This document shows positions 5,771-22,207 of a stretch of DNA of 64,000 bases, one piece after another. The position numbers and the translations under genes were made by a program. The notes under the pieces are model-generated. The model saw only the letters and a program-made list of their open reading frames with translations, had not been told where the DNA came from and made no database searches. The first letter of the stretch is position 1; the number at the start of each line of letters is the position of its first letter. Source of the DNA: Amoebophrya sp. A120 (Eukaryota; Protista; Dinoflagellata); contig CAJINV010000002.1 of assembly GCA_905178155.1 (NCBI GenBank), positions 9,489,087-9,553,086 on the forward strand, read 5' to 3'.

Positions 5771-6660
5771 TCACTGCCCCGGCTCTTTCCCCGTACAGAG
5801 GCGGTACACGAGGTCGCCGACTGTTCCCCCGTCTTGCTGCATCAGACTGGTGCCCACGAGGAAGCAGTCGATGAGCCCGCAGTCCGCTTTGGTCTGTACC
5901 ATCTCGGAGTGTGCCTTGATCCCACTGAAAGAGACCAGCTTCACGTCGACCTGCCCGTATTTCCCGGCCTGTTTTGTCTGTCCCAGGAAGGATCCCACCT
6001 TGGAGGTGGTCTTTAGATCGATTTGGAAGGTTTTCAAGTTCCGGTTGTTGACGCCAATGACGATTTTTTTCTGCTTCGCCTTTTCGCACGCCTCCAGCGC
6101 AAGTTGCATTTCCGCGACGTTGTTCACTTCCAGAATCGGCTCTACCTTGTACTTTTCCACCGCTAGCTTGATCATCTCCGCGAGCGGCTTCTCGAAAAAC
6201 CCGTTTTCGGCTGTGACGCCGTCAGCCGCAACCGCGAGGCTGACAATGAGCAAAACCGCGTCCGCGTTGTTTTCCCTCGCGCGGGCCAGCGAGCGCTCGG
6301 TCAGAAAGAAGTCCTTCATGAGCACCGGCGGACGGGATTGCGGCGAAGTTGTAGCTTCTTTCTGTTTGGTACGTGCAGCGAGGTCGCCTAACGTTTGCTG
6401 CGCTTCCTGGGAGTACTTTTCTGCCCCGTTGAAGAAGCAGGGCTCGGTGAGGATTGAGACCGCGGGAAAGAAGTCAAACGAGTTGTTTGGCAAGCCCTCA
6501 CAGTACCTCCGCAAGAACCTGCTCACAGTCGTGCATCCGTCCTGGCGATCGTAGTGACCGATTTTCACGGACGGGGTTTGCAACTTCACTTCCGGAATGA
6601 CGAAGAAGCTGCTGTCAGGTTTCTTACGGCTGTCGATTCGAGAAAAGATCGATGCGACGT
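5771..6660 (-). CDS. trpC: Indole-3-glycerol-phosphate synthase domain (C-terminus of fusion; bounds approximate)
   Basis: VIPEVKLQTPS, SILTEPCFFNG, PVLMKDFF, ADAVLLIV, PILEV, GVNNRNLKTF, FLVGTSLM. Confidence 0.9.
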
Positions 6661-9600
6661 TTACTTCTTGTTGGCGCGAGGATAAATTTTCCTTAGTGCC
6701 GGAAGGAGCTGTCAACGATGGGTCTTTTGTTTTCTGCATGGAGATATTGACAGACGCATCAGAGATTTTATTTTCTATCTGATTCACGACCCCGAACGCT
6801 CTTTGCTCCACCTCGTCCCGAATGAGTGTGTATTTGCAGATGCGGTCGACCAGACCCGCGTCCTTGTGCTTCGCGCTGTGAGTCCCGACGAAGTTCGTGG
6901 CCCAGATGAATTTGTGCAGCAAAAAAAGCGGGTTTCCGTCTTGATCCTCCGGCTCCGTGGCCGGTCGGGGCTGCAGCAACGAGAGGCACTTTTCCGTGCA
7001 GGCCTTCAGCCAGGCTCTGGATTGGGCAGGCGAAAACGCCTGCAGTACGTGGGGGGCTCGGTCCAAAAACAAAACCAACGCCGCGTTCATGGCGGTAAAG
7101 TTGCGCAAGTTCTCGAAATGCTTCTTCTTCTTTTCCAGCAGTTTCGCCTCCCGCCGAAACAGCGTCAGCATATTGATCGCGTTTTCTCTTTTCTCGTTCA
7201 CAGCATTTTGGTCTACTGCGGTTGTACCAGCCGCAGTTGTTCCTCCAGCTCTCGGCTGTATTAAACCGGTCAGCGAGTACACTTCTTCCGCTGTGCTCCC
7301 CTTAACACCAAAGTCTTCGCAAGTGAGAGTCATCGGCTGTGGCAACCGCTTCTCCCCCTCGTCTTCCCGCGGGAACACCACCTGGACCGTTTGCTTCACG
7401 CCCGCTACCGGTGTGGCTTTGTCCACCCCGTCGGTCGTGTGGATGACTATGAGCTTTTTCGGCAGAGTGGTCGAGCTGTGCTGTGCCCCCTTGGAAAACA
7501 CGAGCGCGTAGGCCCGGGCGACCAAGCTGCTGTGCGCGCCCAACACGGACACCTCCAACTCGCAGGGGTTTACGATCGGGCCGAGGTAGTTGAACAGGGT
7601 CGGCGACTTCCTCCGCGCCGTTTTGGCGGCTCGCAGCTTGGAGTACTTCGCGCGCAGCGGTCCGAACTTCTTCAGGATCGGAAAGAACTGGCGGGCAAAC
7701 ACGAAGGAGAAGTTTTCCGTCTCGTGCAGCACTTTGTCCACGTTCTCGAAACTGTCGATCGCGGTCAAGTGGGCGCCCAGACTCTCCAGCAGGTCCGCCG
7801 CCCCGCTGCCCGCAGCCGTGGACGCTACGTTACCGTACTTCAGCATTTTGATCCCGAGGGAATCTTTACGGTCGAAGGCGGCGGCGGCGAGAATGCAGGC
7901 GGGCGTGGAGATGTTGTGCGGATTCAGGAGATCTCCCCCCGTCCCGACGATGCACCCCATGACGAAATCGCGATTCATGTTCTTCGTTTTGTCAAACTTG
8001 TAGTTGCTCTTCGCCACCTTTTTCGCTTCTTGCAGCAGAATCTCCCGGCAAACAAAGAGCAGGTCCGCGAGCTTCTGGGCGTACTGCTCAGTCTCCTCCG
8101 CCGTCCGAACTTCCTCGTATTCCACGAACGTTTTGGAAAATTTTGTGAAGAAGGAAAAGATTTTCGCCTCCACGAGCGGATTTTCCGCGATCAGCTGCGG
8201 GTCCGAGTGAATCAGAAACGTTTCCGCGGCCTTGTAGAGCTGGTCAGTTGTGATTTCTCTTGTTTCAGCTTCTTCACCTAAATGAGCAAACTCATTCCCG
8301 GTTGCAGGAGTTCTTCCAGACGTGCAACTGATGAACTGCTCCATCAAGTCTATCGCGTCCACCAGTTCAAGCATGTGGGTTTGTTTGCTGATGGTTTGCT
8401 GGTCCTTGTCTCCGCGACCGGACAGATTGATGATCAGGTGCTGACTGCTGTCCATACTTGCTGCCTTCTTCATCGCGCCGGCCACCGCGTGCGCGGTTTC
8501 CAGCGCGCACAGGATCCCCTCGGTTTTCGCGAGTTTCTGGTAGGCCCGCAAGGCTTCCAAATCCGAGATCGACATGTAGTTCGCGCGGCCGGTGACGGAC
8601 AAGAAGCTGTGGATCGGCGACACGCCGGTGTAGTCCAGCCCGGCGGACACGGAGTGCGAGCTCCCGGACTGTCCCCCGTTGGTCTGCAGCATCAGGTTCG
8701 TCGAGCCGTGGAGGATCCCGACCGTGCCGTCGGGGCCGGAAATGGACGCGGAGTGGACTACTTTGTTGTCGTCGAGAAATTCGTTGTTCTCCTCCAGAAA
8801 CCCGCCGGCTTCCACGCCGAGCAACTCGACCCCCTCGTCCCCGACGAACGCGTCGAACATGCCGATGCAGTTGCTGCCCCCGCCGACGCAGCCGACCACG
8901 CAGTTGGGGAGCTTCTTCTCGCTGTCGAAGAACTGCTTCCGCGCCTCCCGCCCGATGCAGGCCTGGGCCTCCCGCACGATGTAGGGGAAGGGGGCGGGGC
9001 CGATGCAGGAGCCGATCACGTAATGCGTGGACTCAATGTTCGACGCCCAGTCCCGCATCGTTTGGTTGACCGCGTTCCGCAGGGTTTTCGACCCGATCTC
9101 CACGGGGACCACCTTCGCGCCCATGGACTCGATCTATGACAGTGCACAACCCCCCCTCCCCCTTATTTGTAATGCAAAATCCCAAATCCAGCTTGAGCTG
9201 CTGCTTCGTAGCGCTGTTTGCATGACAAATCCTGGAAGCCCAAACAGCACTACACTACAGTCCAAATTTGTCATGCTTAACAGACATTCTTGCTCATGCT
9301 TGTATTGCTGTCCATGCCATACAAATGCGGGGGAGGGGGAGTTGTGCACTGTCATACGATCCGCTGCACATTCAGCTGTTGCCGCCGCGCGTCCTTGCCG
9401 CCCATGTAGATCGTGCAGGGCAGGTTCATATGGATTGCAAAAATGTCTGGGTCTGGAAGGTTGGAACTTGTGATGCTACCTTTGGACTCTAAAAAATTCT
9501 ATATTGCATGACCAGCAAGAGGAGTCCGGTTTGTGCTACGCGTGGAGGGCATTTGTCATGCGGAAGAGGCATCAGGAAGGCCTCTGAAAATCTGTGATGC

Positions 9601-12600
9601 TAGGGCTTCCATGACAGACATTCCGTGTCATGCAAAAACAGCATAACAAATTTCGGATTCTTCCAGACCCCGACATTTTTACATTTGATAGTTCAGGTAC
9701 GCGCAGCACACCGCGGTGGCCACGCCGTGCTGCCCCGCGCCGGTCTCCGCGATGATCCGGGTCTTGCCCATGCGCTTGGCCAGAATCGTCTGGAAGATCG
9801 CGTTGTTGATCTTGTGCGCGCCGGTGTGCAGCAGGTCCTCGCGCTTCAGCCAGATCGTCGCGCCGTTGAGGCGGGCCTTGTCACTATCCCTGCCGGACCG
9901 CTGCACCAAGTGGCGGACAAACTTGGTCAGGTTTTCCGCCCTGTACAGGCCCGTCGGCCGCGCGGCGATCTTCTGGTAGAGAAAATCGATCTCCTTCCAG
10001 AACGAGGGCTGACTATACACCTTCACGAACTCCCTCTGCAGCTGCTCGCACGCCCGGCGAATCAGCTGCGAAACCCAGGCGCCGCCGAAGAACCCGTAGA
10101 ACATGGGGATCCTCTGTGGTTTGCAAATGCGGGTCAAGGCCCGGATGCGGAGTTGCGACTTCAAGTGTTTCTTGTGTTGCTCAATCGGTTCCGCAATTTC
10201 GTACGCTTTCAGCGAGACGCTGTACGTGTCGATACTAGCAGCTGTCGTGGCTGCATTTGGACTCTGTCTCTGAGTGAAGCACTGCTCCGCGCCGGACGCG
10301 ACGTCGAACGCGAGACTGCAGCCTGTCGCAGCCATGAATTCCCTCACGTCGCTGTTTTCTAACAATCCCTCCCTTAAACCATTCAGATTCTCCGGACACA
10401 GCCCGCCGGCCACGAAGAGTTGCTTCTGCGGGACAACACGACGCGCTTCCACTCCTGTTGCCCCGGTGGTGGACGAAACCAGCTTTTTGCAGAACTGAGG
10501 CACCACACTGGCCGCTTCCCACGTGAGTCCGTTGCCCCCAAGCGAGCTTCCCTTCTTGCAGTCGAGCAGCAGACCGGTAATAACTTTATTCGAGGGAAGC
10601 AGCAGCTTGGAGCAGCTCTCGACCGTGGTGGCTTGCAGAATGGTTTCCGTGCTATCGAACGCGAAAGCGATAAGAAACTTGCGCGAAGATGTTCCCACTC
10701 CCTGCTGTGCGAGCTGTTGTAAAAAGGCAGCGTCCTGGAAAACCTCCGCCACACACTTCACCATCTCCGTCGTTCCGCCGCAGTGCAACTGGATCACGTC
10801 GGGAGGGAGTTTCAAGACTGCAAGCTTCGACACTTGCTTCAGGATTTCTTCCTTCACCGCGTTGAAAATAGTTTTTTTACCACCAGAGATCACGACAGCC
10901 GCTCCACTCGGCTCCGGCACGACCAACAGCGCCACCGACTTGGGGTTATAGCTGTGGTAGTTGCAGTTTTGGATCAAACTGAACATGTCCGCAATTTTGT
11001 TCAGAGACTCCTGCTCGCCATCGTTCCCAAACGCGTTGTCGTGGCCATACACGTAGCGTGGGGACTTCTCGTAGAAGTTGAACCCGAAAAAATCCACGCC
11101 GTCCGAGAGGGACGCGATAACTTCCTCCCGGTTCGTGTAGCCGCACACCTTCAACGGGGTGATCGTTTGCTCCGGAGGTTTATTTGCGCTCGTCAGTTGT
11201 CTGTTTCTACTACTTCGCTGGTGGCTGGATGGGTGTACTACCGGGACCATGTTTTTCTTGTTGTCAGTAAAAGCCGATTTGCACTTTGCGGCGTCAAAAT
11301 TTTCGTACAGGTTCTTCACCATTTCACTGTATTCCTTATCCGTAGCCACGCCTGACTCCCCGAGCGCGATCGCCTTTCGCAAGTACTGCGTCCCGATCAC
11401 CGCGGCGTTCGGAATCTTCTCGTACGCCGCTCGACACAGGTTCACATCCGACCCGTTTGTGATGCCGAAGCCCATCAAGAGGAAAAATCCGTGCTGCTGA
11501 AGCGTTTTCAAGTGGTTTTGGTAACGCGTCTTCACGATTTTGTCCTCGATCTCGAACTTGTTCTTCGCGCTTTTCGTTGGCATCGTGGACGTAGTGGCAC
11601 CTGAAAGAGAGATTTTCGTTTTAATAAATGTCGATGTGGCAGCACCTACTTAACTATACGATTCAAAAAAATTAGTAGACCGCTTGTTGTTCGGTGACGG
11701 TGACCCTTGCTGGCGCTTGCGATGAGAACCTCCTGGAACTACGCTGCATCACATTCAAAAGAAGACCGTCGTGAAAATCATTCTCAATGACCAGAACTAA
11801 AATTATCTACGTCATTTTTCAAAACAAAACCTGTAAATGAGCAGTACCTGTGACCCCCATGTAGGTTGTCGCGTAGATGATTGGCCTTTTCAGAACGGGG
11901 TCCGCTTGTTCCACTCCTGCACCTTCTGCACCCACAGTGCCTTGCAGTTCCACCATTTCGCACAACTCTTGCACCACGTGCTCCTCGACGTTTTCGGAGA
12001 GAACCGGGATTAAGGACAAGCCTGCCTTCCGAAACACGTTGTTCAGGTTTCCGACGTGCAAACAATCCGCCGTCATGTCCACCACGATCACGTGACGGAT
12101 GCCGAGCTGGACTGCCCGCGTGCCCCACTGGTCCCGAAATTCGAACTCCCCGGACACCGGCGACACCTGGAAGAAGGTGTTCAAGTACCCCATCAAAATG
12201 ACCGGGAGGGAGAAGTTCCGCGTCTTTTGCGCCTCCTCGATCAAGTCCAACACCGCGTGGATGCTGTGGATTCGCTGCTCCTGCAAACACACCCGGTAGC
12301 ACTCCTCGATGACCGGGCCGTCCGCGAAGGGGTCGGAAAACGGCACGCCGACCTCGATCGCATCCACCTTCTTCGAGTTTTGGATGCCGACCAAGCTGTT
12401 GATAAACTGCTCCTTGTTCGGATACCCAGCGCACGTGAAAACGAAATTGCAGAAGTCGTTGCTTTCCAGTTTCCGGAAGTACGACGGCGTGGCGGCGTGG
12501 GAGCGGGACTGCGGATGATTATCCAGCTTCCGGCGCTTCTTCAAGTTGATAGCGTCAATACTATTTTCATCCAAGTCACCTGTTCTTGCAAGAAGTTCGA

Positions 12601-15600
12601 CATCGACCATTTCCGCGTCTACCACCGCTCCACTATCATTAGCACTGCTGACTACGTCCACAGATGCGGACGCCGACAGCTCGGCGTCCTTCCCGAAGCC
12701 GTGGACGAGGAGGAAATTGTACAGCATTTCGTGTCCGCGCTCCGTGCCAATCGACTCGGGGTGGAACTGAACACCGTAAATCGGCAGGTGCTTGTGCTCC
12801 ACGGCCAGCACCACTTGCTTTTCCGAATCCGAGACTGCGGTACAACGCAGGTGCTTGTTTTTCCGCAACTGCTCCTTGTTCGCGACAATGGAATGGTACC
12901 GCATCACTTTCACGTCGTCGTTGTTCCAGTTGTTCGGGTCGTGCTTTTGACTCATCATATCATCCTGAGCCGCTGTCGAGCTTCCTGTTCCCGGTATTGA
13001 ATAGCTACGCGGGAACAGCGGATTGGAGTAGTTCGATTTTGAAACCACTTCGCTAAAGACCATTTTCGACGGCTTTCCGTGGTAAATTTCCTCTTTACAA
13101 ACCTCCGTCGCGCAGCCGAAGTACTCACAGAGCGTCTGGTGGCCCAGACAGATCCCTAAGAGCGGGATTTTCCACTTGACCGCAAAGTCGATGACGGGAT
13201 ACAGCACGTCCTTCACCTCCTTCGGCGATTTCGGGCCCGGGCCCAGCACGATGTGCGAAATGTAGGAAAAGCTGTCCGCGGGGCCTCTCCCCGTCCTGAA
13301 CGTGCTGGCCGAGTTGTCGAAATTTTCCAGGTTCTCCAAAAAAGAATTCGACTCAAATTGCTCGTCCCAGTACTTGATCAGCTTCATCAGATCCGGGTCG
13401 TCGTTGCGAGTCACCTGGATCGACGCCTTGTAGTAGTTCTCAGAATTTGAAGATGATACTTTCCCAATTTCTTCTGCTTTCTCCGCGTCGCACTGATTGG
13501 CGATGTGCGAAATGATCTCACTGAAGTACTGGTAGATGTTGTAGGTGAACGAGTCGTAGTTGTCGACCAACAGAATTTTGTGGTTCTGCTTCCTGTTCTC
13601 CAACGGCCGGGTTAAGGGGAGGTGCGACACCAGGCTGGAAGCGGTGCGGTTGGGTTTTTGGGCGGTGGAGGTGGACGACGTGTTTTTACTTTTATTTTCG
13701 CCAACAAGTTGATGCGCACGTCGCTCGGTCATAATTTTTGCGGTCGTGTGACTTTGCTTCTTCCCCTCCTCTTCTTTTCGCATTTCCTGGAGTCTTTCCT
13801 CGACCATGGTTTCCAGTCGCGCCGTCCCGTAACTCGACCGCGCACCGTAGTCGATTTCGCGGCCCTCGGACATTTGGAGAATTTTTTGCGAAGTAGAAGA
13901 TGAGGAGGACATTTTTTTCATCTCCGCTGCACCGGCCAGCTGCAACAAAGCAGACCCGGGCAGGGAAAGGAGATTTTTGTTCTTGTTGTTCCCGGTGGAT
14001 GCGCTCATCAATCCCTGTTCTGCCTGCTTGATCGCGGATTTCAAAACGTTCATTTTGAAGCCGGTTTCTTCATACTCGGAGGTCGGGTCGCTGTCGAACA
14101 CGATTCCCGCGCCGGCTTGCAGCTGCACCTGGTTTAACGGTACTGAAGACCGACTCTCATCATGATCCGGTGCCTTGGTCACGATGGCGGTGCGGATGGC
14201 GATACAGGTTTCGGTCGTCAACCCATCGTAGTTGAAAAATCCGAGGCCCCCGGCGAACACCCCGCGCGGGCGGTACCGCTCCATTTCCATGATATCCTTC
14301 ACGGCTTGGATTTTCGGCGCCCCGGACACCGTGCCCATCGGGAACACCGCCTTCATGACCTGCAGAGCGGGGACGTCCGGCAGCTTGCCGTCGGCAGTAC
14401 AACCGGACAACTGCAAAGGCACTTGGTGCTGGGTCGGCTTCGCGCGGCCAGGAGCAGCTTGTGCTTGTTGTAGTCCACCTCCGGGAAATAAAGAAGTCAT
14501 TTTTCCTCTCTCTTCTTCGTACTTTTTCTTCGCCCGAAACTCCTTTTTCCTTGTCTGGAATTTGGACACCGCCGCAGCCAGGTCCTTCAACATTTTCTCG
14601 GTCTGCTCCAGATCCACACAGCCGTCGGTCACACTCACGCCATACTTCAGCTGCAGCTCCCCGGCCTTGTACTTCGCAACGTCCAGTTTCTGGTTCCCGC
14701 ACAGCAAATTCGACTCGATCATGACGCCGAGAATCGGCGGGAACACCGGCTCCTCCGCCTGCTCCGCCACGGTCTCGCCGACTACGGTCTCCAACACCTG
14801 GTCGCACAGATCCTTCAGAACCACGGGCTGCCGCGTGAAGTCTTTGTTCGCGTTCCCGTGCGAGCAGTCGATCAGCAGCTTTTTCGGCGCTTCCGGGACC
14901 AGTTTGGAAATGGCGTTCTTCACGTGCTCCCGGCTGTAGTTCGGCCCGTCCTTCCCGCCCCGCAGCACCACGTGCGCGTCGGGGTTGCCGTCCGTCTTGA
15001 ATACCCCGTAGATTTCCCCGATCGCGATCTGCGACCGGTTTTGCTTGATCTGCTGCAACTTCTGGGCTTTGGTCGACGAAGATGAAATCGCCGTGCGCGG
15101 CTCGACGGCACTGGAGGCGGAGGACGCGGACGAAGCAACGCCACTGTTGTTAGTTGTAGAACTGTCAAGACCGGATTGTTGTTCGAGAGAGGAATCATGA
15201 GCAGTTGTATGGCTGTTCACCTCGATCGGCGAGAGCAACATGCGATTCAGCTCCTCCTGGTCGGAATTGTCGCTCGCCGTGGTGATGGCCCCGCCAAACG
15301 CGTGCCCGAACGACTTCTCGTCCATCGGCCCCAGGATGCTGTAGGCCTTCCGCCCGGCGACCACGGCGTCGCAGGCCACCTGCACGTCCCCGCTGGTGCC
15401 GTTCTTGAAGCCGCAGGGCACGTTCTATCAAATGTAAAAATGTCTGGGTCTGGAAGAATGCAAGTTTGTCATGCTTGTCTGGCATGACTCTTAAATCTGT
15501 CATGCACGTTACCCAAGAGCTGCGTTTTTCTGTCATGCAGAAGCGCAGTTTGTCATGCAGAATAGGCAACACCTAGAAGCTCAGAAACTTGTCATGCTGA

Positions 15601-18600
15601 GCCAGCAATTGTGGCCTCCTCATGATATGCCACACAGCATCACAAGTTTCCAGACCCAGACATTCTTACATTTGATACGTTCGCCCCGGACACCATCTCG
15701 CGGTGCACCTGCGACTCGACGGTGCGCGCGCCGATCGCGCCCCAGGACACCAGGTCCGCGATGTACCGCGCGCACACGGGGTCCAAAAACTCCGTGGCGA
15801 CCGGTAGGTCAAAATGCTCCGTGATGTCCAGCATCAACGAGCGGGTCAGGTACAGGCCCTTCTGGATGTCGCAGCTGTCGTCCATGTTTGGGTCGTTCAC
15901 GTACCCCTTCCAGCCGACGGTCGACCGCGGCTTCTCGCCGTACACGCGCATCACGATCAACAACTCGTTCTCGTACTTCTTCGCCTCGTGCGCCAGGAAT
16001 TTGGCGTACTTCAGCGCCATGTCGTAGTCGTGGACGGAGCAGGGGCCGATCACCACCACCAGACGGTCCGGGTTGGGCCCCTTCTGGTGCAGAATCTCGT
16101 GGATCTCGGTATAACCTGCTCAGGCGTTACAATCTCAAACGTTACAATAGAATCTGGGATTTGTATTGCATGAGGAACATGACAGACTCGCAGAGCGTTC
16201 CACTTTCTGCAATACAAATTTCGCCAGATTCTAGTGCGGTTTGGGGCTCCGAAACTTGTCATGCGCAATCCTGTGGGACTAGGGTAGATCATGCACTTCC
16301 TGCATCACAGATTTCCAGATTCTATTGTAACGTTTGAGATTGTAACGTTTGAGCGGGCCATACTCGGTTTTCGCCGTGTTGTTCACGATTTTCGTCTATC
16401 AAATGTAAAAATGTCTGGGTCTGGAAGATTGCAACTTGTCATGCTGTTTTTGGACTCCAAAAAATTTCGTATTGCATGACCAGCAAGAGGGGCACACTTT
16501 GTGCTACACGGACAGGGCATTTCTCATGCGGAAGGTGCATCAGGAAGGCCTCTAAAAGTCTGCGATGCTACATCATGCATTACAGGCTTCATGGGTCATA
16601 AGAAATATGCATGACAAGTCTTGCATTCTTCCAGACCCAGACATTTTTACAATCCATATCGTCTTCTCGCTCGGCGGCAATAAATTCCGCAAGTGCCGGG
16701 GGAGCGGGAAAATTTTGCTCGGCTTGTAAGACAAAACGCGAGGTTTGAAGGGGAAGGAAAACCGAAACGTGCTGGACTGGAAGTTCGCGATTGTGTGATC
16801 CTTCGCCTTCGTGAGAGGCGTTTGCGGGGCGACGTTGAGCTTCCGCTTCTTCAAGGATGGCGTCTGGAACAGTAACTGGTAGTCCTCATCGTCGAGTGCT
16901 TTTCCGGAAAGCACAGAAAATTTGTTACTATTTCCTGCGGCCGATGACGTGTCCGCGACGAACCGGGCTTGCCGTTGCAGGTGCGCGCTGTCCTTGATGC
17001 CGCTGCTTCCCGCCGGACCCCCGGCGTGGATCTGACCCACGACTTTGGAGCACAGATGCATCACGTTCGGGAAAAATTTGATTTTCTGGAACTCCACGCA
17101 CTCCACGGAGCCGGGCTTCGCGATCTTGCCGATGTCGTTGCGGGCCAGGTCGACCAGCATGACGTGCTCCGCGAGCTCCTTCTCGTCGTGCAGCAGTCCG
17201 ATCGCGGTCTCCACGTCCTCTATGGATTGCAAATATGCCTGGGTCTGGAAACTTGTGATGCTGGGCGGCGTATCATGAGGGAGCCACAAGTGCTGGCTCA
17301 GCATGACAAGTTCCTGAGCTTCTAGGTGTTGCCTATTCTGCATGACAAAGTGCGTTTCTGCATGACAGAAAAGTGGGGCTCTTGAGTAGCGTACATGACA
17401 GATTTAAGAGTCATGCCAGACAAGCATGACAAACATGCACTCTTCCAGACCCAGACATTTTTGCATTTGATATCCTCCTTGTCGTCGAAGAACTTGGACC
17501 GCGGCCGCGTCCCGGCGATCGGGTGGGTGGTGATCTGTCCGGAGAAATCCACGGACACCTGCAGCTCCGGCGACGCGCCCACGATGAAGAAGTCGTCCAT
17601 CTTCAGCAGGTAGCGGTACTGCGTGGTCGGGGAAATTTTATTCAGCGCGTGGAAAATCATCCAGGCGTCCGCGCGGGTCTTCTTCTTCTCGATCCGACTG
17701 GGCACCGCCTGCAAAAAGTCGCCCCGGGTGACGCGGTGCTTCAACGTTTCCACGATTTTCTCAAACTCTTTCTGGGAGAAATTGGATTCGTAGTTCTCTT
17801 CCTCTTCGTACGTCATGGTCGAGAACGCGGAAGTTGCAGCGCCTGGTGCAGGGTGAGCGGAACTACCACCCGATGCGGTCGTTGTTGACCCCGCGAGCAG
17901 TAGTTCTTTCACGTCCTTTTCAAGCTCGTCCAATCTCGTCACCGCAGCGGCATAAGAATCCACGAATTGCTTCACATCGAAAATAGCACCACTTCCATTG
18001 TCTGATACTTCGCCCGTGGAAGAAGATCCTTGCCCCCGTCGTACTATCAGCTGCTGCTCCAACTCTTTGGAATGATTTACTTTCACCGTGGCGCACATCT
18101 TGATCCTCTTTCCCGCAACATCCAGTTCCAGAAACGAGTCGTACTGACACAAAATGGTCGTCGGACGCTCGGTATCAAATGCAAAAATGTCTGGGTCTGG
18201 AAGAATGCAAGTTTGTCATGCGTGTCTGGCATGACTCGAGAATCTGTGTTGCAGAGGCACGAAAAGGCCCTCTTATCTGTCACGCAAAAACGCACTTTGC
18301 CATGCGCAATACGTAAGACATGGCAGCCAAAAAATTTGTCATGCATAGCTGCGTATTGCAGTGCGTCTATCATTCTCTTGTAGCATTACAAGTTTCCAGA
18401 CCCAGACATTTTTGCATTTGATACTCGGCTTCCTTGTTGGCTGCTCTGGCGCTTTCCGCAGTAGATCTTTTTGCCTTGTGCTCCTCCAGCACCTTCGCCA
18501 ACGACGGTTCGACCTTGTGCATATTTTCGAACCCATAGTATCCAATATCCTATGTAAAAACGTACCCACCCCATAGTCAAGATGGGGAATTGGCTAGACA

Positions 18601-19518
18601 AATCCACAAGCTTTGGCTGTTTGGCATGACAAATTTGGACGCGTAGTGTAGTGCTGTTTGAGCTAGTTCAGCAGCATTACAGATCTAGTCTCTCATGCTG
18701 ATTGGAGCATGACAAATTTCAAAACACCATTAGAAAATGCTTCTCATGGGGCTCCGCATGAGGAACATTTTAAGCATGCAGAGTTGCATGACAACTATGG
18801 TGTGGGGACGTTTTTACACAGGATATCCAAGTAAGCCCCCACGGAACTTCTGCTGCACGGCGGAGGTTATCCAAAGTAAATTTCCCGTACACGTACAGAT
18901 GCGGTCTCTGCATGACAAAACTTGGCTTCGATCCTAGTTTAGCATGACAAGTAATACACTCCAAATTAGTGAAATTTGTGATGCACGTTGCACATGTACG
19001 GGAAATTTGTATTGCATAGAGGTAGCAGACGAAGTACCAGATGCACCGGTATAATCCTGTGTCGACCCGACCACGACTTCCGTGAGCCCGAGCCGCTGGT
19101 TCATCCACTCGCTGGGGTCCGCGCTGGACCGAAACAGGTCACAAGGCGTTTTGGCCACCAAAATTTTGTTGCCGCGGTCGCAACAAAAATACGCGTAGTA
19201 CTCCTGCGCATTATTTTCCACCGCCCCTTGTTCATCTTTTGTTCCACCAAACAGTCTCTCCGGCTGGGCGAGGCACCTCTGGAAAGTGACATGGTCAGAC
19301 ACCTCCACCTCTCGCTGCAGCAGAAAGTAAAACCCCTTGGGGTTCAACGCAGAACCGTGTGGAGTCGAGGCGGCGCTGCTGGTTGTAGTAACACCATCCG
19401 GACGGCAACTCTCGAAGTAACAGTCAACCGCCCGGATCACCTCGTGGACCGAGGCCTCCGACTTCGATATCTTAAACGCCATAGGGGAAGAAAAAGACGT
19501 CGATGCAACGTTGACCAT
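5771..19518 (-). CDS. Giant multifunctional aromatic biosynthesis polyprotein: TrpE(N)-DAHP synthase-TrpE(C)-TrpG-TrpA-TrpF-TrpB-TrpD-TrpC (~3,756 aa, 11 exons)
   Basis: Span 13,748 bp minus 9 introners (each +5-bp TSD) and one GT-AG intron (2,477 bp in total) = 11,271 nt = 3,757 codons. Each junction was translated by hand and is in frame (e.g. KFRGGLLGYYGFE, DDKEDVETAI, SEKTKIVNNTAKTEIHEIL, SGANVPCGFKNG, YMGVTGATTST, AYLNLPCTIYMG, VQRIESMGAKV). Confidence 0.9.
6890..7990 (-). CDS. trpD: Anthranilate phosphoribosyltransferase domain of fusion (approximate)
   Basis: IVGTGGD..NIST, KYGN..S..GSGAADLLE, TLFNYLGPIVNP, AMNAALVL. Confidence 0.88.
8370..10110 (-). CDS. trpB: Tryptophan synthase beta domain of fusion (two introners inside; approximate)
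   Basis: LKREDLLHTGAHKINN (PLP Lys), AETGAGQHGVATA, CVGGGSNCIG, SVSAGLDY, NLSGRGDKD. Confidence 0.96.
9135..9356. mobile_element. Introner (MITE-like intron), TIR type B, 222 bp
   Basis: TIR tatgacagtgcacaac.cccc; TSD cgatc at 9130-9134 and 9357-9361; removal gives VQRIESMG. Confidence 0.93.
9429..9690. mobile_element. Introner, TIR type A, 262 bp
   Basis: TIR tatggattgcaaaaatgtctgggtctggaag / cttccagaccccgacatttttacatttgata; TSD gttca; removal gives AYLNLPCTIY. Confidence 0.93.
10190..11160 (-). CDS. trpF: Phosphoribosylanthranilate isomerase domain of fusion (approximate)
   Basis: LKVCGYTN, FGFNFYEKSPRYV, IQLH, LLLDC..GGNG..W, FVAGGLCPEN, FDVASGAE. Confidence 0.9.
11300..12450 (-). CDS. 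trpA: Tryptophan synthase alpha domain of fusion (split by GT-AG intron; approximate)
   Basis: TCAGYP, IEVGVPFSDPFADGPVI, PVILMGYLN, YMGVTG, LMGFGI. Confidence 0.92.
11601..11847 (-). other. Canonical GT-AG intron (247 bp) in TrpA domain
   Basis: Minus strand ACAG|gtactg...ctctctttcag|GTGCC; joins ORFs 11819-15421 and 9679-11583 in frame. Confidence 0.85.
12710..13585 (-). CDS. trpG: Anthranilate synthase component II (glutamine amidotransferase) domain of fusion (approximate)
   Basis: ILLVDNYDSFTYNI, LGPGPKSP, LGICLGHQ, VMRYHS, GVQFHPES. Confidence 0.95.
14020..14375 (-). CDS. trpE: Anthranilate synthase component I, C-terminal part (after the DAHP synthase insertion)
   Basis: FPMGTVSGAPK, RGVFAGGLGF, CIAIRT, QAGAGIVFDSDPTSEYEET. 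Confidence 0.93.
14560..16740 (-). CDS. aroG: Class I-alpha DAHP synthase (AroF/G/H type) domain inserted in frame in TrpE; three introners inside (approximate)
   Basis: VIGPCSVHD, RVYGEKPRSTVGWKG, IGARTVESQVHRE, GFKNGT, LRGG, DCSHGNANK, GVMIES, YGVSVTDGC. Confidence 0.94.
15426..15677. mobile_element. Introner, TIR type A, 252 bp
   Basis: TIR tatcaaatgtaaaaatgtctgggtctggaa; TSD cgttc; reverse-orientation relative of 17221-17472 and 61079-61330. Confidence 0.93.
16110..16362. mobile_element. Introner, TIR type D, 253 bp
   Basis: ~48-bp TIR tat..cc.gctca..cgttacaatctcaaacgttacaatagaatctgg; TSD ctcgg. Confidence 0.92.
16397..16658. mobile_element. Introner, TIR type A, 262 bp
   Basis: TIR tatcaaatgtaaaaatgtctggg / cccagacatttttacaatccata; TSD tcgtc. 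Confidence 0.93.
17030..19518 (-). CDS. trpE: Anthranilate synthase component I, N-terminal and central part (four introners inside)
   Basis: FRGGLLGYYGFE, GDFLQAVPS, VGASPEL, HPIAGTRPR, DEKELAEHVMLVDLARNDIGK, VMHLCSKVVG. Confidence 0.92.
17221..17472. mobile_element. Introner, TIR type A, 252 bp
   Basis: TIR tatggattgcaaatatgcctgggtctggaa / ttccagacccagacatttttgcatttgata; TSD tcctc. Confidence 0.93.
18173..18423. mobile_element. Introner, TIR type A, 251 bp
   Basis: TIR tatcaaatgcaaaaatgtctgggtctggaa; TSD ctcgg. Confidence 0.93.
18546..18825. mobile_element. Introner, TIR type C, 280 bp
   Basis: TIR tatcct.tgtaaaaacgt.cccac.ccatagt; TSD tccaa. Confidence 0.92.
18868..19018. mobile_element. 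Introner, short TIR type G, 151 bp
   Basis: TIR tat.caa...aaatttcccgtaca; TSD gaggt; removal gives SATSAVQQKFRGG. Confidence 0.9.
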
Positions 19519-20680: not shown

Positions 20681-22147
20681 TCATGGGTCGGCACAACTCT
20701 GATGATCAGCATCCTGAACTTCATACATTTCTGCCCGCGTAACAATTTCGGAATTCATTCCTTCTGTATCGACAATCGTAAAGCGTGCGAAAAATGGATC
20801 GCAAATCGGCTCTGTGTAAATTCGAAACGGATCAGCTCCGCTCCTGTAACCCGGTGCCTCCCGTACTCCTTCGATGCTACTATCCACACCGACCGATTCC
20901 GCTGTGCTTATTCGGTCGTAAAGCAACCTCAGGAAGGACGTTGCTCTGCTTTTGTCTTCTCGTTCCGCTTGCGCGTGTCCTTCTGCGCCAGGTCGGCTGC
21001 GTTGGTGATCCACCGGATCACGCCCCCCGGCGAAGTCGGCTTCTAGGTTCATAGTAGTATTGTCGCGAGAAGAACAAGAACCGAGAGCCATATTTCCTCT
21101 TTCACTTTTCTCCACAACGGAGTTGTCCATTCTGGTTTTTTTCGCTTTAAGATGTTCTTCCTGGTCAGCCGGACCGAGTCCACTTCTATTGCAATCTCGC
21201 CGTAGATACCCCGGAAGCCAATGGCGCGCGTCAACCCACATTTTCGAAAAGATCGAGTCGTCGCGAGCTCTGCTTGGCGCTGAAGCAGGAGCATTTCGTG
21301 TGCTCGCTGGTCCCTCCACTGGGTCGGCTTTCATAACGCACTTCCCTCTTTCATCTTCTTCAAACCGCCCAATTTTGCCCAACTCAGTCGTCACGTCGAA
21401 CCACTGTGGTCGCATCTCGTCGCTCTCATGCGCCTCTAGCGTCTGCAAATCCGCTTCACTCCACCTGGCCTTTTCCACTCTGTTTTCGTTTCCCTGCCGC
21501 GAATCACCAGCATCGGAATCTTGAACTTGATCAACATCTGCATGATCAATGCGATACTCGAAAATGAAGATTTCCAAAATTTTCCGGCAACTTCTTTCCA
21601 CCTCTTGCCCCTTCTCGTACAGGTAGTCGACGTCTTGCCTCCCGACAAACCGCAATTCTGCAGCAACCTTTTCCTGCACAACTGAAACATTTACTTCCCC
21701 ACCTGTGCTTGTCCTCGTCCCTGCGGCGGGACATTCCACCAAAAGCGGTGAGCAGTCCGGGACATCGTCCAACACGGTGAGCAGCCCGGGACATTCCTCC
21801 AAAAGCTCCCGCGCTGCGCAGTCCCGGATCGTCCTGTCCTTGCCTTCCTCGAACTTGCCGCCGAAACCGTTCCATTTTCCCTTGCCGAAACCGCGCTTCT
21901 TGAAGCCGAGCAGAATTTTGTCCGAGCACTGCGTTTTCAAGCGCGGAAATACGAGGGAAAGCATTTTGCGCTTTACTTGCTGTGTACTGGCCTCGTCTTG
22001 CTCTGTCAGGCTGCAGCACGAAAGGGGTGCTGCTGCTACTTCCGGAGATGTCCGTTTCTCAGTGCGCCGCTCCATTTGTTGCCTGGCTGCGACAGTTGTC
22101 AAAGCGTCGCCCCCTGCCGCCAACATCGTTTCTGTTTCGTCTGGCAT
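20681..22147 (-). CDS. NUDT1: MTH1/NUDT1-like Nudix hydrolase (oxidized purine nucleoside triphosphatase) with long insertions
   Basis: [33 protein letters not shown] Nudix box, [20 protein letters not shown], all resembling MTH1. Confidence 0.88.
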
Positions 22148-22207
22148 AATGTTGTGCGATTACTTTGGTGTACAACTGGATTGTCTTTGTTCCCACACCT
22201 CAAACTA

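Follow-up and report, generated by a model that had tools for sequence, protein, structure and literature searches.

A tryptophan gene interrupted by a DAHP synthase

We analyzed a window of 64,000 nt of Amoebophrya sp. A120 (assembly GCA_905178155.1, contig CAJINV010000002.1, positions 9,489,087 to 9,553,086), to which all coordinates refer. Its minus strand carries a multifunctional trp gene, running from 19518 to 5771, in which a 3-deoxy-D-arabinoheptulosonate 7-phosphate (DAHP) synthase is nested within the catalytic domain of anthranilate synthase (TrpE). Once nine introners (described below) and one GT-AG intron are removed, the gene reads as a single frame of 3,756 codons with one terminal stop. 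Its start codon was taken to be the first ATG of the frame, and the spliced coding sequence (CDS) used for site counts has 11,271 nt. Pfam matches and motif positions place the domains in the order TrpE-N / DAHP synthase / TrpE-C, TrpG, TrpA, TrpF, TrpB, TrpD, and TrpC (Table 1), where TrpF is a weak Pfam match below the cut-off.

Three database proteins with the source label Amoebophrya sp. A120 (P0017, P0138, and P0239) match the translation of the gene letter for letter. The NCBI annotation splits the gene into three models (at 14338, 14291-16977, and 17200-17860 of the window). P0017 begins at an internal Met within the TrpE catalytic domain, and the two others are partial models, P0138 being 100% identical to residues 530-1161 of the spliced protein and P0239 to residues 320-544. 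Domain surveys based on this annotation would overlook the nesting.

Table 1. Features of the trp gene in the window
Feature	Position	Strand	Remarks
Whole trp gene	5771..19518	minus	contains database protein P0017
TrpE N-terminal part	17029..19518	minus	catalytic half from 17783; PIAGT 17522, ELAEH 17178, HLCSK 17058
N-side linker	16774..17028	minus	85 residues
Class I-alpha DAHP synthase domain	14564..16773	minus	complete, broken by 3 introners
Internal insertion of DAHP synthase	15023..15304	minus	94 residues
C-side linker	14378..14563	minus	62 residues; contains acceptor-like site 14419-14411
TrpE C-terminal half	14021..14377	minus	alignment to 1i1q_A
TrpG glutamine amidotransferase	12707..13579 (approximate limits)	minus	motifs GICLGH and FHPES
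TrpA, TrpF, TrpB, TrpD, TrpC	5831..12448 (approximate limits)	minus	from 12448, 11154, 10107, 7954, and 6601, respectively
Introner, TrpE N half	17221..17472		inverted repeats and 5-nt duplication; removed in gene model P0239; without a listed RNA joint
Introner, DAHP synthase N-terminal extension	16397..16658		spliced in 2/4 contig sets
Introner of second family, after 29-nt exon	16110..16362		spliced in 2/4 contig sets
Introner, DAHP synthase core	15426..15677		spliced in 2/4 contig sets
Three introners, TrpE N-terminal region	18868-19018, 18546-18825, 18173-18423		each spliced in 2/4 contig sets
GT-AG intron and two introners	11847-11601; 9690-9429, 9356-9135		a 7,168-nt contig has all three spliced

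The TrpE segments HLCSKVVGQI (starting at 17058) and ALQVMKAVFP (14368) are separated by 626 codons that are stop-free after splicing, each of four introners (17472-17221, 16658-16397, 16362-16110, and 15677-15426) being removed with one copy of its 5-nt target-site duplication. The spliced frame shows one apparent stop, at 11819 inside the next intron, against 67 and 32 stops in the two other frames. The Pfam profile Chorismate_bind is matched before the block at profile positions 2-95 and 107-165 and after it at 161-257, and DAHP_synth_1 is matched within the block (profile 16-129 and 158-268). In intact homologues, the motifs H-x-x-S-x-V-x-G and F-P-x-G-T are 23 residues apart (107 of 120, the 13 others being without one of the motifs), whereas they are 644 residues apart in A120 and 597 in P0016, the orthologue of strain AT5.2. 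The block is made up of the N-side linker, about 475 residues of DAHP synthase (its 94-residue insertion included), and the C-side linker. In the model of the intact homologue P0055 (mean predicted local distance difference test, pLDDT, of 93), the insertion site is a five-residue loop (377-381) between a strand (365-376), which carries the catalytic histidine (His398 in 1I1Q numbering), and a helix (382-389). The open frame, the split profile, and the spacing of 644 instead of 23 residues confirm the in-frame DAHP synthase block of the original prediction and support its domain insertion that tethers this enzyme to anthranilate synthase, an arrangement also kept in the second, divergent strain. 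As a separate observation, the sequence DGKLPDV at the C border resembles the intact loop, possibly an old duplication; it is not present in AT5.2.

Read-through of the block and the published orthologue

RNA contigs are available as four sets, from two samples of one study. We consider them to be spliced RNA because, of the seven introners between 13900 and 19700, six have joints in these contigs. A contig of set X1 (16786-17074) crosses the TrpE-N border (17040) unspliced, and an overlapping X1 contig crosses two introners on its way from the linker to the DAHP synthase. On the other side, the acceptor-like site at 14411 is bridged by contigs X1 14348-14758, from the end of the DAHP synthase into TrpE-C, and X4 14305-14478. 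None of the eight joints listed skips the block, in contigs that have a depth of 3-7, drop rare variants, and each cover less than the whole block. Three raw-read RNA runs (X9-X11) cover introner repeats only and are uninformative on the expression of the trp gene or on skipping.

The fusion itself is not new. John et al. (2019; PMC6482013) reported AroG fused to a multifunctional trp gene, g13589, in Amoebophrya ceratii AT5.2, using PCR on genomic DNA and cDNA and Sanger sequencing of the amplicons. The Pfam row of g13589 in their supplement gives Chorismate_bind at 431-602, DAHP_synth_1 at 734-1121, and Chorismate_bind at 1178-1290 (PMC6482013). In the g13589 protein, their primers correspond to residues 457 and 1260, one in each TrpE half, and the expected amplicon is 2,427 nt if colinear and about 705 nt if the block is skipped. 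The PCR with primers in both TrpE halves, which had been proposed as a check of the original prediction, was therefore already run for AT5.2, with cDNA confirmation of the fusion according to the authors. The fusion and its cDNA support have been in print since 2019, and the A120 gene is its instance in a second, divergent strain. What is added here is the loop site, the residue states, the lost tryptophan motifs, and the relation to the paired paralogue; the nested order already shows in their supplement, and the discussion in the accessible text of PMC6482013 does not take up nesting, catalytic residues, or feedback. We found no other paper on this AroG-trp fusion in a search that left most subscription journals outside; shikimate is absent from the accessible texts of PMC7789003 and PMC11453091, as is Amoebophrya from that of PMC3942023.

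The alternative raised by the original prediction was that the block is skipped by splicing at the acceptor-like site near 14411-14419. Such a site, CCTTTGCAG at 14419-14411 in phase 0, is indeed present, but it does not stand out as a splice site: with it, the spliced CDS has 12 sites in phase 0 of the same quality. On paper, a GT at 17043 or 17040 could be joined to it in frame, and a minor skip isoform could escape contigs from which rare variants are dropped. However, both borders of the block are read through, the 11 equivalent sites elsewhere in the CDS single out nothing at this position, the motif spacing of the skip product would be 27-28 and not 23, no introner-like repeats flank the block, and the published primers enclose the block in the cDNA-confirmed orthologue. 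Alternative skipping is thus not borne out, and it is very improbable that the main isoform loses the block and encodes an ordinary TrpE. We also ruled out that the block is one giant introner: the longest direct repeat flanking it is 9 nt, a length of at least 9 nt being reached by 38 of 200 random pairs, and the longest inverted repeat is 8 nt.

The AT5.2 protein (P0016) is an orthologue of the A120 protein, with the same order (TrpE-N, AroG, TrpE-C, G, A, F, B, D, C), the same insertion site, and about 46-47% identity over the main aligned blocks. The two genes differ in that the model of g13589 opens with a NUDIX domain and in that the A120 copy has nine introners. Between the strains, the domain cores are 58-82% identical (66% and 58% for the TrpE halves), whereas the linkers are 26-31% identical and of unequal length. 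The N-side linker has 85 residues against 65 in AT5.2 (26% identity; pLDDT below 50 over the modelled part) and the C-side linker 62 against 45 (31%), both linkers being of low confidence (pLDDT below 50) in the AlphaFold model of P0138. In A120, a NUDIX-family open reading frame (ORF) lies upstream on the minus strand (20681-22159), and its own stop precedes the start of the trp gene by about 1.2 kb. The NUDIX domain that forms the N-terminus of the AT5.2 model is a separate ORF here, which reflects either a merged model there or a real strain difference.

The split TrpE keeps its catalytic residues except Tyr449 and loses its tryptophan motifs

The best PDB matches of both TrpE halves are anthranilate synthases. 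Seven of the nine TrpE motifs tested are kept in both strains, and these cover the metal and substrate ligands. Gly328, Thr329, Glu361, His398, Arg469, Gly485, Glu498, and Lys502 (1I1Q numbering) are all present, as are Thr425, Gly483, and Glu495 in the C-terminal half. We take Glu361, Arg469, Glu498, and Lys502 to be chorismate or Mg ligands in addition to Gly328, Thr329, His398, and Gly485. The latter four are listed as chorismate-binding residues (PMC10464499). The changes in the C-terminal half are Tyr449Phe, Val453Leu, Tyr455Phe, and Asp463Glu. Downstream, the catalytic motifs of TrpG are intact.

The residues listed as binding tryptophan are Ser40, Pro291, Met293, Val453, and Tyr455 (PMC10464499), and all five are changed in both strains. 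The motif L-x-E-S, found in 100 of 100 intact homologues, is missing from TrpE residues 1-345, where the sole ES pairs of A120 (YFES at 34 and TAES at 206) are off the aligned position. NPSPYM is replaced by SPTTQYR (at 17633) and by SQETQYR in the second strain, while NPSPY[ML] is present in 98 of 100 intact homologues. Residue 453 is Leu or Ile and residue 455 Phe across the two strains. In mycobacterial TrpE, single changes in the tryptophan site abolish feedback (PMC6437058). For the allosteric coupling suggested by the original prediction, a route through the usual tryptophan site is therefore not supported, this site being lost in both strains. Judged by its catalytic motifs and context, the A120 protein is a TrpE, and by the same sequence evidence it is not a canonical feedback-regulated member of the family.

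The nested DAHP synthase and its paralogue

The barrel of the DAHP synthase is modelled with confidence, 340 residues of the AlphaFold model of P0138 having a pLDDT of at least 90. Foldseek aligns this model to class I-alpha structures (4HSO, 3TQK) with a template modelling (TM) score of 0.93 by target and an E value of 1.8e-37. Among the 65 columns conserved at 90% in 89 homologues, 63 are kept in A120 and 62 in AT5.2. The motifs GPCS, R-x-x-x-x-KPR, GAR, KN, RGG, D-x-SHGN, ES, and TD are all kept, and they presumably hold the ligands of the metal, phosphoenolpyruvate, and erythrose 4-phosphate. RVYFEK has become RVYGEK in the two nested DAHP synthases, a change that no other protein compared shows; a degenerate motif scan retrieved the YGEK pattern in three stand-alone aroG loci.

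Relative to the N. meningitidis enzyme, ITPQY is changed to VCARY and SGL to SGA, positions that we assume to be part of the Phe/Tyr pocket. The internal insertion of 94 residues is mostly of low confidence and has 69 residues in AT5.2 (28% identical). It presumably falls between the two strands of the regulatory hairpin, and the paralogues fused to prephenate dehydratase (PDT) have a shorter insertion at the same place. The feedback site of class I-alpha enzymes is formed by the N-terminal extension and this hairpin (PMC4735112). The presumed pocket region is changed and carries an insertion, but the N-terminal control motif DD-x-R is present in only 11 of the 89 homologues, and the paralogues are altered too.

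Both strains encode a second DAHP synthase behind PDT (P0002, P0003). In a quick tree, the four DAHP synthase domains of the two Amoebophrya strains group in one clade (support of 100 in the Shimodaira-Hasegawa-like approximate likelihood ratio test, SH-aLRT), in which the nested pair is sister to the PDT-fused pair (89). We infer that the insert probably came from a duplication that predates the divergence of these strains. A recent foreign origin was considered and ruled out: the insert groups with the endogenous paralogue, and its third-position GC is 0.87-0.94, compared with 0.76-0.89 in the flanking domains.

The PDT-fused paralogue consists of PDT, a helical middle conserved between the strains, and the DAHP synthase. 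In P0002 alone, residues 359-436 weakly match the Pfam profile CM_2 of chorismate mutase (E 0.16, short of the cut-off). Chorismate mutase is among the enzymes listed as missing by John et al. (PMC6482013), and on these sequence matches the helical middle may be the missing enzyme.

Co-production as the favored explanation

We favor the explanation, to which we give a probability of roughly 0.55, that the DAHP synthase nested in the TrpE loop is a likely feedback-insensitive entry enzyme of the tryptophan branch, with both activities predicted from sequence and with co-production, not feedback coupling, as the consequence. Duplication of an ancestral Amoebophrya DAHP synthase gene would have left one copy with PDT, the enzyme of the phenylalanine branch, and put the other into the five-residue loop that follows the His398 strand of TrpE. 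The long and poorly conserved linkers would let each domain fold on its own, the TrpE halves refolding around a flexibly tethered barrel so that both enzymes work. Every copy of the tryptophan enzyme would then bring its own entry enzyme, tying the amount of the latter to that of the pathway, and there would be no end-product inhibition at TrpE. We prefer co-production to feedback coupling because the usual tryptophan-feedback motifs are lost. The six steps between DAHP and chorismate lie on a separate AroB-A-K-D-E-C protein (PMC6482013), which makes direct channelling from the DAHP synthase to TrpE unlikely.

Several observations weigh against this explanation. The RNA evidence consists of low-depth contigs from few samples, and the runs were called RNA by guess. 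In the N-terminal extension of the DAHP synthase, the strains share 49% identity, considerably more than in the linkers. Phe takes the place of Tyr449 in the two strains, while the RG-x-Y motif is present in 94 of 100 intact homologues; we found no report on the effect of this change, and the accessible text of the review retrieved does not name Tyr449. More broadly, 87 of the 134 highly conserved TrpE columns are kept and 47 differ. The N-terminal alignment is poor around Ser40, whose assignment is the weakest of the five tryptophan-binding residues, and the replacements common to both strains (TQYR, a motif of the F-G-G-G-x-G-F-F type) could be a new regulatory site. Finally, the tree is a quick version with 64 rows (60 of the 89 homologues and the four Amoebophrya domains).

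Some of these points suit another explanation, in which the nesting would be a new allosteric link that replaces the lost feedback sites: the TrpE active site, through bound chorismate or a new tryptophan pocket, would signal its state to the inserted DAHP synthase, or the reverse. The insert begins about ten residues after the catalytic His398, both canonical regulatory regions are remodelled with replacements common to the two strains, a Prevotella DAHP synthase-chorismate mutase fusion is allosteric (PMC8408635), and class I-alpha enzymes act as dimers (PMC4735112), through which the insert could order the whole polyprotein. Linkers as long, as poorly conserved, and as low in model confidence as these are nevertheless poor carriers of a rigid signal, and we identified no conserved new pocket, so that we regard such a link as unlikely, though worth keeping in view. 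The Tyr449 change and the 47 differing columns could instead mean that the split TrpE is impaired or serves only as a scaffold for TrpG and the DAHP synthase, anthranilate coming from the host or from another chorismate-using enzyme; the pathway table of John et al. indeed gives anthranilate synthase to another gene, g6970 (PMC6482013). Against such an impairment stand the seven TrpE motifs kept in both strains, the higher identity of the TrpE halves (58-66%) relative to the linkers (26-31%), and the intact TrpG motifs. The visible start of g6970, moreover, looks to us like a RING-containing model with a PabA-type motif behind it, and we judge an impaired or scaffold-only TrpE improbable. The long, low-confidence linkers on both sides would also be compatible with a polyprotein made whole and then cut by a protease into a free DAHP synthase and a two-chain TrpE, but neither a conserved cleavage motif nor intein-like ends were seen by eye in the sequences of the two strains, which leaves this processing little chance of being right.

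In a more speculative explanation, the architecture replaces small-molecule feedback. Of the two sister DAHP synthases, the one inside the tryptophan mega-enzyme and the one joined to PDT and a chorismate-mutase-like domain would each be under the control of the branch enzyme into which it is built, and the nested one would sense the active site of TrpE by way of the insertion point next to His398. We consider this explanation unlikely.

Introners in the trp gene and its surroundings

The trp gene is interrupted by nine elements, all of which have a 5-nt duplication (9/9) as well as TA...TA ends and terminal inverted repeats. Amoebophrya introners are defined by terminal inverted repeats, direct repeats of 3-5 nt at their borders, and removal from the mRNA (PMC7789003). 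The trp-gene elements agree with this definition, with RNA joints for eight of the nine. The very short exons between adjacent introners, at 16363-16391 (29 nt) and 18824-18862 (about 39 nt), are correctly spliced on the contigs. At least eight further inverted-repeat pairs of the same introner family lie at 23520-61319 of the window, and some contig joints connect internal stretches of introners and probably stem from further genomic copies.

Significance, distribution, and comparison with known systems

These results confirm a published fusion in a second strain and correct an annotation that cuts the gene in three. The remaining interest lies in an insertion of about 620 residues adjoining the catalytic strand of a chorismate-using enzyme whose textbook tryptophan off-switch is gone. 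If active, the protein would be a natural feedback-insensitive anthranilate synthase with a tolerated insertion site, and a parasite of bloom-forming algae would hold its tryptophan synthesis under some other control. The pairing with the PDT-fused paralogue makes branch-specific control of shikimate entry directly testable.

The nested form was found only in the two Amoebophrya strains, in two long-protein searches (15 and 2 matches) and among the best 120 of 7,995 TrpE matches. No further nested copy was seen among the best 150 of 19,122 representative matches screened with the TrpE profile, and a motif scan of metagenome contigs gave three loci that have aroG alone, the contig DNA examined there giving no match to TrpE. 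The absence of the nested form outside Amoebophrya is weakly shown, because the match lists were crowded by stand-alone enzymes. Among the other proteins retrieved, P0001, P0139, P0140, and P0272 are tandem double DAHP synthases, and several catalytic motifs look degenerate in P0140 and P0272.

The nested domain has the fold and catalytic residues of class I-alpha DAHP synthases (E. coli AroG/AroF, N. meningitidis, yeast Aro3/Aro4; PF00793), from which it differs in being embedded in another enzyme, in its 94-residue insertion, and in the changed residues of the presumed pocket region. Similarly, the host domain shares with TrpE (1I1Q, 1I7Q, 1QDL, 5CWA; PF00425) its best PDB matches, the chorismate and metal ligands, and a TrpG that comes next in a complete trp set, but its catalytic domain is split by about 620 residues, the tryptophan-site motifs are lost, and Tyr449 is Phe. 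Eukaryotic trp proteins of about 2,100 residues (P0012-P0014) also carry most of the pathway on one chain; unlike the A120 protein, they have the order E-G-D-C-F-B, an intact TrpE, and no DAHP synthase, with no TrpA match in P0012 and P0013. The entry enzyme has been joined to a chorismate-using enzyme elsewhere. P0164, a 793-residue protein on a 5.7-kb contig of the Joint Genome Institute (JGI), has a class I-alpha DAHP synthase followed by a salicylate/anthranilate synthase domain, and DAHP synthase-chorismate mutase bienzymes are known as well (PMC8408635). Both, however, are fused end to end and of independent origin, and in P0164 the partner is intact, with the TrpE profile matched in one piece (220-482), whereas in A120 the entry enzyme sits inside it.

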